DNA of 31,516 bases from a virus, in IMG/VR virus record IMGVR_UViG_3300020724_000020. One strand, written 5' to 3'. A program made the translations under genes and the position numbers. The notes under the pieces are model-generated. The model was not told the DNA's origin. It saw nothing but the letters and a program-made list of their open reading frames with translations, and searched no databases. This document shows positions 197 to 23,431 of this stretch, in pieces. Positions within the stretch are counted from its first letter, which is position 1. Each line of letters starts with the position of its first letter.

Positions 197-511
197 TTGG
201 GTGGACATCATAGTAATGCGTTTCTTGGCAACTTTGAAGGCACCTTTAAAGAAGTATTAGAACACGCTGCAAATAATGTTAAAGGTTTTTATGGTTGGGG
301 TAGTGGTGGATATGTTACGCCATTAAAGGAAAAGGAAGAAAGTGCACCACCAACAATTTTAGATAAAAAGAAAAATCTTAAATTACAGAGAAAAGCCAAA
401 TTAAAAAAACTTATAGAAATAGATATTGATTTTTTACTTGAAAACATTGATAATCTTGACAAAGAAGCAATTAAAGAGGCATTATTGCAACTTAAAACTA
501 AAATAAAATGA
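197..511 (+). CDS. hypothetical protein with internal basic RKAKLKKL motif (Fam-B-like); TTG start, 5' end uncertain
   Basis: ORF track; motif KLQRKAKLKKL seen in translation; upstream in-frame stop at 122. Confidence 0.35.
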   Translation: MGGHHSNAFLGNFEGTFKEVLEHAANNVKGFYGWGSGGYVTPLKEKEESAPPTILDKKKNLKLQRKAKLKKLIEIDIDFLLENIDNLDKEAIKEALLQLKTKIK

Positions 512-831
512 AACTTAAACAACTTATAATAAAGACAAAGGTTTCTGATGTTATTCAATTGCAAAAATATTTATTTAGTTTTGGTTATTATTGGGATGAT
601 TTACAAAGAAATCATCAACTGAAAAAATTTAACATATCAATTTTTAAAAATATGAAATATGTTTATATTTTAACAGGTAAAAGTTGTGATATGAAATATA
701 AGACAATGAAAGATATGGATATCATATTTAAAAATGCCACAGATATTACTGATTATAAGAGGATTACATACGAACAACTTATTAGAAAGCAGAAACTTAA
801 AAAAATAACAAATGAAATACAAGGAGGGTGA
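508..831 (+). CDS. Fam-B small protein (subtype ii N-module QKYLFSxGYxW), C-terminal LIRKQKLKKI tail
   Basis: ORF track; N-module shared with 11821-12105(-), 19894-20211, 7598-7862(-); C-terminal basic tail. Confidence 0.55.
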   Translation: MKLKQLIIKTKVSDVIQLQKYLFSFGYYWDDLQRNHQLKKFNISIFKNMKYVYILTGKSCDMKYKTMKDMDIIFKNATDITDYKRITYEQLIRKQKLKKITNEIQGG

Positions 832-1084
832 TGTTGTTGTTATAAAATCTTTGAAATGGTATAATAAAAACAAAGATTTTGATGATTGTATTAGCCGGCA
901 AGGTCAACATTGTTTCACTTCTGAAATGAAACAGTATTGTGGCATGCGAGCACAAGTTACAGCAGCCCATTCTGATTTTTACCTATTGGATATAGCAGGT
1001 GATGAATGGGTATTTCAAGATTATATGTTGGATGATTTAAAAACTATGAGAAAAATGAAACTTAAAAAGTTACAAACTGTTTAA
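812..1084 (+). CDS. Fam-B small protein (subtype i, SH3-like GDVVxIKxLxWY module), tail MRKMKLKKL
   Basis: ORF track; N-module similar to 1345-1626(-), 5785-6090(-); C-terminal tail. Confidence 0.55.
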   Translation: MKYKEGDVVVIKSLKWYNKNKDFDDCISRQGQHCFTSEMKQYCGMRAQVTAAHSDFYLLDIAGDEWVFQDYMLDDLKTMRKMKLKKLQTV

Positions 1085-1372
1085 CCTTTTCAATTTTTCT
1101 CTTCTAATTAAATGTTTAGCCTTTGTTGAATATGTAAATATAACACCACCATCATTAGAACAACGCCATTCCCCGTTTCCAAGCTTAGTGAATCCATAAT
1201 AGTAGTAGAGAAGAGCAATTTCAAAATTACCAAAAGGTAAATTACATTCATAGAAGGATTCTTTCAAATATTCTTTTTTAATCTTATAGTCAAGGCTTTG
1301 AAGAAATTTAGCAACTATAACTGCCTCTTTAGCAGTTGTAAAACTTATGTGTTGTATCTTACTGAAGTCCAT
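1070..1372 (-). CDS. Fam-B small protein, tail LIRREKLKRLNSL
   Basis: ORF track; C-terminal tail motif. Confidence 0.5.
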   Translation of the reverse strand: MDFSKIQHISFTTAKEAVIVAKFLQSLDYKIKKEYLKESFYECNLPFGNFEIALLYYYYGFTKLGNGEWRCSNDGGVIFTYSTKAKHLIRREKLKRLNSL

Positions 1373-1626
1373 TTATTTAATTTATTTTTTCTAACATCTC
1401 GTAATGTTTCAAACATTTTCTCAGCATAAATATGGCGATTATCTATATCTACCACATATTTATAACCACCAAATTCATTAGTGATAATTGCCTTTTTACC
1501 GCAATGTTCAAACATAGATTTGCTGATAAACATTACACCAAATTCCCATCCCTGATGTTTTTTGAACCAATTTAAATCTTTGATATAAACAACATCACCT
1601 ATCTTATATTTATATCCTGCACTCAT
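1345..1626 (-). CDS. Fam-B small protein (subtype i), tail RKNKLNKW
   Basis: ORF track; IGDVVYIKDLNWF module; degenerate tail. Confidence 0.5.
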   Translation of the reverse strand: MSAGYKYKIGDVVYIKDLNWFKKHQGWEFGVMFISKSMFEHCGKKAIITNEFGGYKYVVDIDNRHIYAEKMFETLRDVRKNKLNKWTSVRYNT

Positions 1627-1698
1627 TCAATTTCTTTAAAATCGTATTCCATATCTTTATATTCCATATTAAACAAATATATTAAATATTTTTAAAAT

Positions 1699-1717
1699 AA
1701 AAAAATTTATATATAAC
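1699..1717 (+). promoter_or_regulatory. island promoter-like box AAAAAAATTTATATATAA 4 nt upstream of ATG
   Basis: same A-tract+TATATA box recurs before 7092, 8147, 17208, 24302, 30838; no SD. Confidence 0.45.
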
Positions 1718-1720
1718 AAA

Positions 1721-2068
1721 ATGAAATATATAAAATTATTTGAAAACTATAATATAGTTGAATTAAAAAGTTTAGTTGGTTTACATATGTTATCTGGTGT
1801 TGACATAACAACCGAATCAGAAGAGGATGAAGATGCTACAGTTGTTACATTTATATTAGATGGAATAACATACAAAGCAACAGAAGATCCAAGTGATGGT
1901 TATCGTTCATGTTGTAGTGATATTATTATATGTAATGATAAAGTTACAAATTATTTTCCTGAGCATGAAGTGATGGGAGAAATGGATAAAGATGAAGATG
2001 ACAATGTAATTATATTTACTGATACTTCAACAAATGGTGTTGTTTTAGAAATTGGTACAATTATTTGA
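1721..2068 (+). CDS. Fam-A member with MKYIKLFENY head but no KYNL tail (C-terminus possibly altered by adjacent IS insertion)
   Basis: ORF track; head motif; ends LEIGTII next to TnpB 3' end. Confidence 0.6.
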   Translation: MKYIKLFENYNIVELKSLVGLHMLSGVDITTESEEDEDATVVTFILDGITYKATEDPSDGYRSCCSDIIICNDKVTNYFPEHEVMGEMDKDEDDNVIIFTDTSTNGVVLEIGTII

Positions 2069-21462: not shown

Positions 21463-21500
21463 ACGGATTTTTTTTCTTTGAGAGGAAATCCGTATCTTTG
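21463..21500 (+). promoter_or_regulatory. inverted repeat ACGGATTT/AAATCCGT overlapping -33 TTTG and -7 TATCTTTG promoter elements
   Basis: 8-bp arms with 15-nt spacer; TTTG at 21477-21480 and TATCTTTG at 21493-21500. Confidence 0.4.
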
Positions 21501-21521
21501 TGCTATCAAAACAGAGAAACT

Positions 21522-22292
21522 ATGAAAATCGCAAACGAAATTATCGAGAAATTACAGGCTCTTAAAGGACTTAACCTTGATACCGCTTTCCTTATCTTCA
21601 AAGAAAAGAGATTGAATGTTAAACAGAGTGGCTTTGTTGAGAATGTTATTGCACTTTTGATTGACAGGGATCTTCCTAAAAATGAACGCGGTATGGACTT
21701 CAAAGGTTTATTTGAAGTTAAAGAAATCAAAGTAAAATTTACCAAAAGAACTGGTGAGATGCGTACAGGTGGTGATACTGCTATTAGTGCTTATTTGAAC
21801 TCTGAACCAAACTTCTTTGAATCAAACATTTGGGATAAATCAAAAAGTATTCTTATCGTTTGTGTTGATGAAAAAAGAATTGTTGTTGATGTTCGTTTCT
21901 TTGATGGTGAACTCTTTGCAGAACAGATGAAGAAAGATTATGAAGCAATTAAAACTGCTAGGAACCTTTGTCGTCAGAACAATGAAATTTTAGTTTTCAA
22001 AACTGGTCGTAACTCTATCATGATGAAGGGTAACACAGCTATTACTATGAGTGAAAGTATTCTTTCTGATGAAACGAATGAAATTGTTGATCAGGATACA
22101 TTTATTCGTGATATGTTTGACGAAAAGTTTGCTTCTTATCAGGAAAAAGTGAAGAATGCGGCTGAAACAATTTGCTTCTTAATGGATCGTCTTTCTATTG
22201 CTGATTTAGAAATGATTAAGAAATTGGCTGAATCTAAAATCAAGAATAGTGTAGGTTTTGATATGAATACTGGTGTTGAATTACCTTTCTAA
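21522..22292 (+). CDS. MutH/Sau3AI/DpnII-family (GATC-type) PD-(D/E)XK endonuclease-like protein
   Basis: GMDFKGLFEVKEIK matches MutH PDF..LGVELKT (D-x6-E-x-K); start set at Met9 of ORF 21498-22292. Confidence 0.55.
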   Translation: MKIANEIIEKLQALKGLNLDTAFLIFKEKRLNVKQSGFVENVIALLIDRDLPKNERGMDFKGLFEVKEIKVKFTKRTGEMRTGGDTAISAYLNSEPNFFESNIWDKSKSILIVCVDEKRIVVDVRFFDGELFAEQMKKDYEAIKTARNLCRQNNEILVFKTGRNSIMMKGNTAITMSESILSDETNEIVDQDTFIRDMFDEKFASYQEKVKNAAETICFLMDRLSIADLEMIKKLAESKIKNSVGFDMNTGVELPF

Positions 22293-22315
22293 AAATAAAA
22301 ATATGGACTCAAAAA

Positions 22316-22584
22316 ATGAAATATTCAGTAGGTCAAAAAGTTCGTTATATTGGTAAAACCAACAGTCCTGCCTTTGTCGGGATTTTAAATCCAATACCCG
22401 TTTGGAGATTTATACAATTCATTCTTATTATGATGATTCTTATCCAATTGAATATAGAATAGTTCGTGATGATGGACAAGTTGGTTTATGGTGGGAAAAT
22501 GAAATGAAGAAAAAATTTATTTCTCTCAAAGAAGAAAGAAAATTAAAATTAAAAAAGATAGGTTATGAACAACCCAATCACTAA
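22316..22584 (+). pseudogene. Fam-B subtype i member with frameshift near 22400 (MKYSVGQKVRYIGK... then EIYTIHSYYDD...RKLKLKKIG)
   Basis: two overlapping frames; second half = ORF 22402-22584. Confidence 0.45.
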
Positions 22585-22876
22585 AGTCTTATGTAAAAAA
22601 TATTATAGATCACCGGGGAGAAACCTCTTCGGTGAGTATCATGTTGATGTATTTTATGATAAATTTATATTAGAAACAGAAGAACTTCAAAAATTTACAC
22701 CTATACCATATACTTATAAATACATTTATATCTATAATAAAAATGGTAGAGGTGGTCTTCGTTTTCATCTAAATAAAGATAAACCTGAAAACTTATTTCC
22801 TTATTTTTATGATTATTTTTATGATAATCAAGAAATTAGGAGAATGAAACTTAAAAAATTGTCAGAAATTTTTTAA
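22565..22876 (+). CDS. Fam-B small protein (subtype iv YFYDYFYDNQEIRRMKLKKL)
   Basis: ORF track. Confidence 0.55.
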   Translation: MNNPITKVLCKKYYRSPGRNLFGEYHVDVFYDKFILETEELQKFTPIPYTYKYIYIYNKNGRGGLRFHLNKDKPENLFPYFYDYFYDNQEIRRMKLKKLSEIF

Positions 22877-22927
22877 TTGAAAAAAAATTTGTAAATTTCA
22901 AATATTCTAAATACTTAAATATATTAT

Positions 22928-23431
22928 ATGCAAATTTTGATTTTAATCGCATTAGGAACATTTCTTGTTTTAAGTGTACTCTTTTTCATTTTCTATATAA
23001 AAGTAAGAAATAAGAGAGATAAATTGGCTTCAGTAAAAAATTCAGAGGCTGAAATTGTTATTTTAAAGAAAAAATATGAATATGCTTTCGCTGATTTAAT
23101 TCAAAATAAGAGAAAAGGATATTACACAGAAACTGTTAATCTTATTGATGATGAAAAAGATCCAACTAAAACAAAACCTTACACTTGTGCTATTTATGTT
23201 AAAGAAATAGACAAATTTACAAATGGTGAATCTAAAATTCAATTAGTTGATATAGAGGTGGTTTCTGGATTTAGTATTGAACAATATTCTTGGATTAAAA
23301 AATGTTTAAGAGAAAGGTTTGTAACAGTTAAACCTCAAAAAGAAATTATATGGCTTGAAAGTGAGGAATCTATCAAAGAATTGAGAAAACAAAAACTTGA
23401 TAAACTTAAAGAATTTGGTGAAAAAATATAA
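22928..23431 (+). CDS. Fam-B protein with N-terminal TM helix, tail LRKQKLDKLKEFGEKI
   Basis: ORF track. Confidence 0.5.
   Translation: MQILILIALGTFLVLSVLFFIFYIKVRNKRDKLASVKNSEAEIVILKKKYEYAFADLIQNKRKGYYTETVNLIDDEKDPTKTKPYTCAIYVKEIDKFTNGESKIQLVDIEVVSGFSIEQYSWIKKCLRERFVTVKPQKEIIWLESEESIKELRKQKLDKLKEFGEKI

Follow-up and report, generated by a model that had tools for sequence, protein, structure and literature searches.

A common C-terminal tail on the Fam-B proteins

The IMG/VR virus record IMGVR_UViG_3300020724_000020 is a stretch of 31,516 nucleotides (the window, at its full length) with a G+C content of 26% and small genes tightly packed on both strands, about one third of which carry a short basic C-terminal tail that defines a superfamily here called Fam-B. 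A preliminary reading made from the letters alone (the sequence-only reading) had placed about 27 such proteins on both strands between positions 508 and 23,431 and had quoted 18 of their tails. All 18 were found where they had been placed, and 27 instances were counted in that interval, including three with the relaxed tails RKNKLNKW, RQKKLLNL and RKEKIMKI (Table 1). Scanning the window in six frames with the strict motif R[KR].KL.[KR][LIM] returned 25 matches, 24 of them at most 15 residues from a stop codon, while Markov-shuffled window DNA gave 0.05 (second-order) or 0.1 (fifth-order) matches with a maximum of 2. The strict motif is present in 19 of the 68 called genes, in every case near the C-terminus, as compared with 0.02 matches when the residues of each protein were shuffled and 0.015 when only the last 25 residues were. 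A K/R/L-rich composition, which the sequence-only reading had named as the way in which its motif might fail, therefore does not account for the tails at the level of either DNA or residues.

The motif ends 1–14 residues from the stop codon in the window and mostly 3–7 residues from it across 226 family members, whose consensus is F(-7) x [TS] [IL] K E [ILY] R K x K L x K [LI] N, where positions are counted from the motif Arg (R0) to give L-4, I-1, K3, L4 and L7; the consensus tail peptide is FITLKEYRKLKLQKLNES. The conserved unit, running from F(-7) to N, is thus longer than the [LIV]R[KR]xKL[KR][KR][LI] first proposed. Of the 27 instances, 22 lie in open reading frames (ORFs) with a start codon, one in an ORF without a canonical start and three in genes split by a frameshift, and one is an orphan remnant. 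Single frameshifts split these three Fam-B genes and also one ankyrin-repeat gene (9374–9869) of a second superfamily, Fam-A, and pseudogenes, assembly errors and programmed shifts are candidate readings of the split genes. At the convergent ends of Fam-B gene 7410–7598 and Fam-A gene 7092–7415 the two stops overlap (7410–7415), both genes closing with Leu-stop on the palindrome TTATAA.

Table 1. Fam-B genes and other features of the window, with the position of each tail motif or a remark.
Feature	Position	Strand	Tail motif or remark
Fam-B, 107 aa, QKYLF-type alpha/beta module	508–831	+	RKQKLKKI at 784–807
Fam-B, 90 aa, SH3-like barrel and C-terminal helix (residues 76–89)	812–1084	+	RKMKLKKL at 1049–1072
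Fam-B, 100 aa	1070–1372	-	RREKLKRL at 1082–1105; convergent overlap with 3′ end of 812–1084
Fam-B, 93 aa, SH3-like	1345–1626	-	relaxed RKNKLNKW at 1369–1392
Fam-B, 75 aa	5276–5503	-	RKLKLKKL at 5306–5329
Fam-B, 99 aa, SH3-like, last strand YFYNYFY	5482–5781	-	RKLKLGRI at 5527–5550
Fam-B, 101 aa, SH3-like	5785–6090	-	RKKKLEKI at 5797–5820
Fam-B, 199 aa, body fold unassigned	6099–6698	-	RKYKLKKI at 6108–6131
Fam-B, 105 aa	6721–7038	-	RKQKLKRL at 6733–6756
Fam-B, 62 aa, Cys/His-rich	7410–7598	-	RKRKLEKL at 7422–7445
Fam-B, stop-to-stop ORF without ATG/GTG/TTG start	7595–7855	-	RKIKLEKL at 7613–7636; 43% identity paralog of 11821–12105
Fam-B, 86 aa (81 aa from ATG at 8094), Cys/His-rich	7849–8109	-	RKEKLKRI at 7864–7887
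Fam-B, 139 aa	10845–11264	-	relaxed RQKKLLNL at 10857–10880
Fam-B, frameshifted	11251–11567	-	body ORF 11280–11567; tail RRKKLEKL (11272–11295) in different frame
Fam-B, 107 aa	11501–11824	-	RRMKLKRL at 11513–11536
Fam-B, 94 aa, QKYLF-type alpha/beta module and tail helix (residues 79–93)	11821–12105	-	RKLKLQRL at 11833–11856
Fam-B, 207 aa, phrog_7397 N-terminus	12814–13437	-	relaxed RKEKIMKI at 12826–12849
Fam-B, 104 aa	13502–13816	-	RKVKLMKI at 13523–13546
Fam-B, frameshifted	17596–17897	-	body ORF 17622–17897; tail RKIKLKKI (17608–17631) in different frame
Fam-B, 70 aa	17878–18090	-	RKLKLKKI at 17896–17919
Fam-B, N-terminus uncertain (uncalled in public contig)	18080–18484	-	RKSKLNKL at 18098–18121
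Orphan tail remnant RRMKLERINNL*, 6 codons upstream only	18345–18380	+	from strict-motif scan
Fam-B, 105 aa, QKYLF-type	19894–20211	+	RKEKLTKI at 20176–20199; first gene of unit flanked by terminator-like sites
Fam-B, 179 aa, hydrophobic N-terminal segments	20422–20961	+	RKNKLEKL at 20920–20943
Fam-B, frameshifted (22316–22462 plus 22402–22584)	22316–22584	+	RKLKLKKI at 22537–22560
Fam-B, 103 aa, last strand YFYDYFY	22565–22876	+	RRMKLKKL at 22838–22861
Fam-B, 167 aa, N-terminal transmembrane anchor	22928–23431	+	RKQKLDKL at 23384–23407; orthologs in L007, L013
Possible Fam-B outlier outside 508–23431	197–511	+	RKAKLKKL at 389–412, 31 residues ahead of stop
Fam-A regions	1721–2068, 7092–10850, 14311–17168, 21026–21430, 24302–26342, 30838–31152	+	assigned by terminal motifs
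TTTATATATA copies	1706–1715, 7076–7085, 8132–8143, 17194–17203, 24284–24293, 30824–30833	palindromic	divergent gaps shared with (-) Fam-B arrays
Orphan …KYNL* endings without Fam-A body (six)	3624–3797, 5231–5281, 9273–9377, 17575–17601, 24868–24906, 25601–25663	+	
IS607-type pair	2152–3754	-	431-aa TnpB-like (precomputed PF27229 SSO2105_N) overlapping 106-aa serine resolvase (PF00239)
69-aa ORF, low-complexity	4947–5156	+	signal-peptide-like N-terminus, then Gly run, HSSSSS repeats
Stand-alone receiver domain cREC_REC	13788–14222	-	62 bits; heads a Fam-B array
Stand-alone receiver domain Response_reg	17208–17564	+	36 bits
MVP_shoulder/SPFH-like protein	18515–19801	+	MVP_shoulder 97 bits, Vault_3, then long helical region

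Selection acts on the tail protein sequence

The codons of the tails vary, with Arg encoded by AGA, AGG, CGT or CGG and Leu by TTA, TTG, CTT or CTA, and the amino-acid substitutions are conservative (R/K, L/I). Comparing motif and bodies in 221 genes gave nearly identical usage for Lys and Leu codons (AAA 0.88 versus 0.87; TTA 0.61 versus 0.62), the Arg figures of this comparison being biased by a retrieval pattern that required AGR. Because synonymous codon usage is equal in tails and bodies, selection acts on the protein sequence of the tail, as the sequence-only reading had maintained, and the conservative substitutions and the retention of the motif at convergent gene ends with no following gene (1049–1105, 7410–7415) bear this out.

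Throughout the arrays of Fam-B genes the next start codon lies 4–20 nt within the 3′ end of the preceding gene, and the tail-coding DNA is also the initiation region of the next array gene; a Shine-Dalgarno motif is not visible upstream of most genes. These features would suit an RNA or DNA signal, namely A-rich tail DNA conserved because translation of the following, overlapping gene starts there, in a host independent of Shine-Dalgarno pairing. The overlap is nevertheless unable to explain the amino-acid pattern of the tail, and the signal is largely refuted already by the equal codon usage, by the CGT/CGG and CTT/CTA codons, by substitutions conservative at the amino-acid level and by the motif at convergent ends lacking a downstream gene, which leaves it with hardly any probability.

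The tail is attached to different bodies

AlphaFold2 predicted the tail to be helical on two differing folds, the SH3-like body of 812–1084 and the alpha/beta body of 11821–12105, and the SH3-like body of the major subfamily is a five-stranded barrel in the predicted structure. The N-terminal parts of 230 proteins fall into 137 BLAST clusters, many of which share the SH3-type first strand M-K-x-G-D-K-V-x-C-I, and the tail-bearing bodies include SH3-like, alpha/beta, Cys/His-rich (7410–7598, 7849–8109), membrane-anchored (22928–23431, 20422–20961 and a family in the related loci L008 and L011) and HNH-like proteins as well as a gp32-type OB core. The sequence-only reading had spoken of at least four unrelated N-terminal modules; such modules do exist, but with SH3-like proteins in the majority the set is in part one large paralog expansion, and YFYxYFY, which had been taken for an N-terminal module, is actually the last strand of the SH3-like domain, directly ahead of the tail.

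The Y07B-type domain provides the strongest case for grafting. Pfam PF27001 Phage_T4_Y07B annotates one SH3-like Fam-B subfamily (precomputed matches on P0010, P0011 and other relatives, zero on window genes) and covers the body, not the tail. In the present clade this domain ends …FNSVSFDYVPIKEIRKEKLNKL, whereas the Y07B-type protein of Synechococcus phages DSL-LC02 and S-SSM7 stops or diverges just past …FNSVCFEK, without a tail. Since the same domain is thus tailless in cyanophages and tailed in this clade, the tail is a portable add-on, which supports the earlier idea of an address tag or partner-binding peptide on diverse cargo. The SH3 unit is also found tailless in large proteins, repeated in tandem with …RFxL at the end of each copy; this shows F(-7) to be part of the final strand of the domain and places the start of the tail proper near -4. 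In orthologs collected independently of the motif, identity is 56–67% in the tail versus 39–41% in the body. P0041 and P0042 are two-domain fusions of tandem Fam-B genes, one of which carries a tail internally (…ARKLKLEKLDKVW…), ahead of another body with its own tail, and this shows that an internal position is tolerated by the helix.

The gp32-type OB core is found in L018:5514–6095 (phrog_224, E 1.6e-10; Pfam gp32, 30.5 bits), which ends …IIRKEKLKELSNL and has an ortholog ending …IERKEKIKKLNLL. This protein and L031:200–775, both from IMG/VR relatives, are short gp32-like proteins that lack the basic N-terminal and acidic C-terminal domains and have the Fam-B tail at their end. The tail of the gp32-like protein can be aligned with the T4/RB69 gp32 helix …SKDKFKSF… (…LSEMTSKDKFKSF…), and in gp32 homologs at a greater distance the match goes no further than residue 161. 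A further protein of 203 aa, L130:13676–14287, weakly resembles the N-terminal region of T4 gp23 (VQPLSSPSPQLF; Pfam Gp23 19.9 bits, below cutoff), ends in the tail-like KLRKEKLMELNKINI and adjoins a gene judged by eye from its sequence to be clamp-loader-like.

Occurrence of the tail in AT-rich T4-related huge phages

Proteins identical to those of the window occur on the metagenome contigs ENA ERZ27271870 k141_311742 (31.9 kb) and JGI 3300020722, and relatives reach 711 kb. On the largest, JGI 3300031521 Ga0311364_10000001 (711,471 bp), a Fam-B member has neighbours matching Pfam Phage_30_3, T4_Y16D, RNA_ligase and GIY-YIG, and the tail is present on 20 of about 57 genes within 20 kb; further relatives encode Tad3, N6_N4 methyltransferases, HSP70 and Phage_T4_Y07B, and also a gp32-like gene. 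Judging by these Pfam families, the gp32-like gene and the large genomes of the relatives of its proteins, the window is a metagenomic piece of a very AT-rich T4-related huge phage. The MVP_shoulder/SPFH-like protein at 18515–19801 has counterparts at 47–51% identity in the huge phages LR756500 (462 kb) and LR756501/LR756503 (735 kb) and at 71–77% identity on IMG/VR contigs of 40–222 kb. The 735-kb phages have been assigned to Bacteroidota hosts, and a Bacteroidota-type host is plausible for the window phage as well. Boxes of the Bacteroidota -7 type TAnnTTTG lie upstream of 19894, 21026, 21522 and 14222(-); the motif was rejected as evidence of early expression, as it shows no overall enrichment (62 found versus 61 expected).

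Using a slightly relaxed motif, we found the tail on 440 of the 1,217 genes in 42 related loci (526 kb). The flanks of MVP-like relatives, which were fetched independently of the motif, carry 5–9 tails per 14–21 kb. A scan of IMG/VR with a degenerate DNA pattern returned 120 stretches, and all the tail-rich ones have a G+C fraction of 0.21–0.27, the densest packing as many as 18 tails into 6.3 kb; these loci yielded 204 distinct tail-bearing ORFs (median 88 aa), and seeming gaps in the arrays proved to be variant tails such as RKLKLQLL and RNIKLKKL. A profile of one subfamily, the SH3-like body plus tail, matched at least 2,818 cluster representatives (50% identity) at E ≤ 0.001 among 1.84 billion. 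The best 150 included 141 sequences not returned before, 120 of them with the strict C-terminal motif and most of the others with close variants of it. These searches indicate that the tail is clade-wide among very AT-rich T4-related huge phages.

Database searches of the window proteins gave little: none of the Fam-B proteins of the window is covered by a Pfam model in either the local or the precomputed set, PHROG searches returned essentially nothing apart from the N-terminal phrog_7397 match of 12814–13437, one Fam-B protein searched against 5.8 billion proteins found only itself, and tblastn of 11821–12105 against GenBank phages found zero matches. A PDB sequence search with the tail profile stayed at chance level (eS27 ‘RKHKLKRL’, E 0.3), and no description of the motif was found in the literature on Mahaphage, on huge phages and vault, or on paralogous small proteins. 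The tail is thus an undescribed portable protein module, new in sequence, position and scale, while its logic, a constant terminal tag on variable cargo, would resemble that of a known kind of system.

Genomic context and the Fam-A neighbours

Fam-B genes form long co-directional arrays. The commonest PHROGs among 107 larger neighbours are homing endonucleases, HNH/GIY-YIG nucleases, DNA methyltransferases and transposases, and the 25 most-matched PHROGs listed for them include no family of capsid, tail, portal or terminase proteins. One array begins directly behind the gp32-like gene, with a DinG/XPD-type helicase close by. The arrays are accessory regions typical of T4-like phages, not structural modules; context alone leaves the timing of expression and the destination of the proteins undecided, as T4 internal-protein genes occupy similar regions. 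Terminator-like sites, each a hairpin with a T-run (19830–19870 and 20962–20985; …CCATCTCCATCAGAGATGGTTTTTT…, CCCTTCGGAGGTTTTTTTT), bracket the unit 19894–20961. No kinase or output domain was seen in the neighbourhood of the two receiver genes.

The Fam-A superfamily comprises about 20 intact genes whose products start MK[YH][IL]K.[FY]E… and end …KYN[LMV]*. The T4 capsid-targeting sequence (CTS) is MKTYQEFIAE, and the Fam-A N-terminus (e.g. MKYIKLFE, with L-x-E) resembles it; Fam-A may be a set of head-internal proteins. The palindrome TTTATATATA occurs in 8 copies in the window versus 1.7 expected (0 of 100 shuffles reach 8), and six of the copies lie 5–6 nt upstream of an ATG, at the heads of Fam-A arrays and of the response-regulator gene 17208. 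It looks like a phage promoter, a candidate whose position would imply near-leaderless mRNAs. Two of the orphan KYNL endings, 5231–5281 and 17575–17601, directly abut the stop of a (-) Fam-B gene. The string that encodes KYNL, AAATAYAATYTA, holds TATAAT 2–3 nt ahead of the next ATG, so the Fam-A ending may double as a DNA-level signal. A pairing of the basic Fam-B tail with the Fam-A tail was considered and rejected, because Fam-A tails are not consistently acidic and a subclade of 22–24% GC has Fam-B without KYNL ends.

The MVP-like/SPFH protein might conceivably form a cage. It is the only shell-like gene nearby, and its relatives also occur away from tails; as a receptor for the tail it was rejected, since the relatives in LR756500/LR756501 and L006 are tailless within 17–41 kb.

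Properties of the helix and alternative explanations

On a helical wheel, L-4, I-1, R0, K3, L4 and L7 share one face, and E-2 and the variable positions 2, 5 and 9 lie on the opposite one, an arrangement that fits the partner-binding peptide suggested in the sequence-only reading. R0 and K3 sit inside the Leu face, making it a mixed Leu/Arg/Lys face. The tails carry a mean net charge of +4.0 on bodies that are neutral on average (whole proteins +3.7). Their hydrophobic moment is 0.25, no higher than the 0.28 of shuffled tails, with a mean hydrophobicity of about 0, so an amphipathic helix, one of the candidates of the sequence-only reading, is not supported; the tail is not amphipathic in the usual sense. 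At about two heptads the tail is also shorter than the three or more with hydrophobic a/d positions expected of a coiled coil, and the only consistent register, as judged from motif spacing, would put R0 and K3 at core a/d, which disfavours a homomeric coiled coil.

The lack of amphipathicity bears directly on the idea of a membrane-targeting helix of the MinD/FtsA C-terminal type that parks proteins at the inner membrane. The tail shares with those helices its short, C-terminal, Lys/Leu-rich character, and 62% of tails exceed 1.34 in a HeliQuest-type discriminant D, a value driven by charge; theirs are strongly amphipathic, however, whereas the Fam-B tail has invariant Arg and Lys amid its Leu face and is also borne by proteins with transmembrane anchors of their own, which makes membrane targeting very improbable. 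Charge is likewise what speaks for direct binding of DNA or RNA by the basic helix, which would make the members nucleoid- or RNA-associated proteins, and the presence of the tail on a gp32-like single-stranded DNA-binding protein (SSB) core and on an HNH protein is in keeping with this. A lone 15-residue helix would bind weakly and non-specifically, though, the strict spacing and the invariance of Arg0 go beyond the needs of charge, and the invariant Leu4 and [LI]7 on the same face as R0 and K3 look more like a protein interface than a contact with the phosphate backbone; we consider this reading quite unlikely. We rate no higher the proposal that the tail is a plain last helix, or a self-association helix, of a fast-diverging paralog family without a common external partner, in which extreme divergence and occasional recombination would have produced the apparently unrelated modules. 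Most members do begin with the SH3-type strand, tandem arrays are typical of duplication, and F(-7) is part of the last strand of the SH3 domain; on the other side stand the tail behind another predicted fold, transmembrane proteins, Cys-rich modules and an OB fold, the Y07B domain and tandem SH3 repeats known without it, and the heptad register, which, as deduced from spacing, speaks against self-association through coiled coils.

An interaction with the prohead is unlikely too, if slightly less so. In this case the tail would bind the prohead scaffolding core as a C-terminal mirror of the T4 CTS, the proteins would be packaged and injected with the DNA, and a T4-type prohead protease would clip the tag after Glu -2. 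The T4 prohead protease prefers L/I-x-E, and [LIVM]-x-E stands directly ahead of the basic core (-4 to -2) in 60 of 224 tails versus about 4.6 at control offsets, with Glu at -2 in 100 of 224; it is this likeness to a protease site that keeps the explanation alive, along with the T4 relationship of the phage and the small size and overall basic nature of the proteins. Against it, the full [LIVM]xE is present in only 27% of tails, membrane-anchored (22928–23431, 20422–20961, the L008/L011 family) and SSB-like members are unexpected as soluble head cargo, no structural family is among the 25 neighbouring PHROGs listed, and the explanation would make head cargo of roughly one gene in three in these regions. 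The Fam-A N-terminus, which is far more CTS-like and sits behind TTTATATATA, is the better candidate for such a role.

Comparison with known systems

Like the T4 CTS, the Fam-B tail is a short conserved terminal peptide on hypervariable small proteins of T4-type phages (PMC3012670), its genes lie in accessory, fast-evolving loci, and [LIVM]xE may mark a protease site where tag and cargo meet. The CTS differs in being N-terminal, about 10 residues long and non-basic, as against the C-terminal, basic and helical Fam-B tail, and there is no sequence similarity between the two; Fam-B N-termini are diverse, and some members are membrane or SSB-like proteins. Short terminal alpha-helices also serve as docking peptides in T4-type replication: the N-terminal helix of T4 gp32 binds the neighbouring gp32 core and its C-terminal helix (residues 250–264) binds Dda (PMC11551737), and the gp32-like protein of the present clade ends in the tail. 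The C-terminal (A-domain) helix of gp32 is acidic, however, its N-terminal B domain bears a (K/R)3(S/T)2 motif, neither helix is spread over hundreds of unrelated proteins, and the resemblance to the Fam-B tail is weak and confined to …SKDKFKSF….

The cargo peptides of encapsulins and microcompartments are short terminal tags, often C-terminal and in microcompartments helical, that bring diverse cargo to one shell protein, but their sequence classes are unlike the Fam-B tail, and no Pfam or PHROG match to an encapsulin (HK97-fold) or BMC-H/P shell gene was seen in the window or the 107 neighbours. P22-type scaffolding has a C-terminal basic helix-turn-helix that docks to the capsid interior by charge and hydrophobic contacts and can load foreign cargo; it is one dedicated protein rather than a multigene family, and Fam-B lies outside structural modules. 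The monopartite pattern of a nuclear localisation signal (NLS), K-K/R-x-K/R (c-Myc PAAKRVKLD), is matched by RKxKL. Two roles floated in the sequence-only reading, an NLS-like signal and a type IV-like secretion signal, are nonetheless unlikely in an element whose relatives carry the T4-family Pfams Phage_30_3, T4_Y16D and T4_Y07B, gp32 and Tad3, a countermeasure to bacterial defence: a T4-related phage of this kind has no eukaryotic import machinery at its disposal, and no type IV coupling protein or secretion apparatus is present among the annotated neighbours. The tail thus falls outside every family tested, namely the T4 CTS, MinD-type helices, encapsulin and microcompartment tags, type IV signals, NLSs and coiled coils; it is set apart from the CTS because the latter is N-terminal and from encapsulin and microcompartment tags because a shell gene is absent from the searched set.

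A proposed docking helix for a common partner

A mixed Leu/Arg/Lys face that is invariant on many different bodies points to a docking peptide, and we put it at about an even chance that the tail is a docking helix tethering many variable small domains to one common partner. Fam-B is defined by this portable, predicted C-terminal alpha-helix of about 15–18 residues, [IL]-K-E-[ILY]-R-K-x-K-L-x-K-[LI]-N-x-x-stop, which a clade of very AT-rich T4-related huge phages has attached to hundreds of small domains, mostly SH3-like barrels. In the docking model the conserved face (L-4, I-1, R0, K3, L4, L7) would fit a site of acidic and hydrophobic character on a single conserved partner, and docking would collect all the variable domains at the same place, in a mode comparable to the terminal docking helices of T4 gp32 or to the T4 CTS. 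As the partner we prefer a component of a phage or host DNA-replication or nucleoid hub, because the tail ends an SSB-like and an HNH protein, because nucleic-acid binding is common among folds of the kinds that make up the bodies, and because membrane-anchored members would be awkward cargo for heads; our second choice is the prohead core, through which the proteins would be packaged and co-injected.

Several points weigh against the docking helix. A partner or receptor for the tail was not found in this analysis, and the tail-only profile is too short for significance, giving at most 31–33 bits and E ≥ 0.016 in the local and the large database. The link to DNA metabolism comes from a few members and the neighbourhood. 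As most members are SH3-like, the pattern is partly an ordinary paralog expansion of a domain-plus-helix protein, and in these members the helix could pack on its own domain. In the gp32-like protein the tail may be ancestral, even the source of the module, rather than grafted.

The role of an address tag is one that we infer, and with more reserve than the docking itself. It is possible, though on balance doubtful, that the tail is an address code routing hundreds of fast-evolving small effector domains to one destination, perhaps a hub of replication or of the nucleoid with the phage SSB at its centre, perhaps the prohead, from which they would be co-injected. If so, it would be a C-terminal, genome-scale counterpart of the T4 CTS and a ready-made cargo tag for Bacteroidota-type phage systems. 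The family, with its at least 2,818 clusters, deserves a profile of its own in the domain databases. Huge phages have hundreds of small genes without an assigned function. Identification of the partner would test whether the T4-style logic of constant tag and variable cargo has been scaled up, possibly provide a portable targeting peptide, and offer a way into how uncultivated phages of 200–700 kb conduct their infections, in which one interaction may explain the site of action of a large part of the small-gene dark matter.

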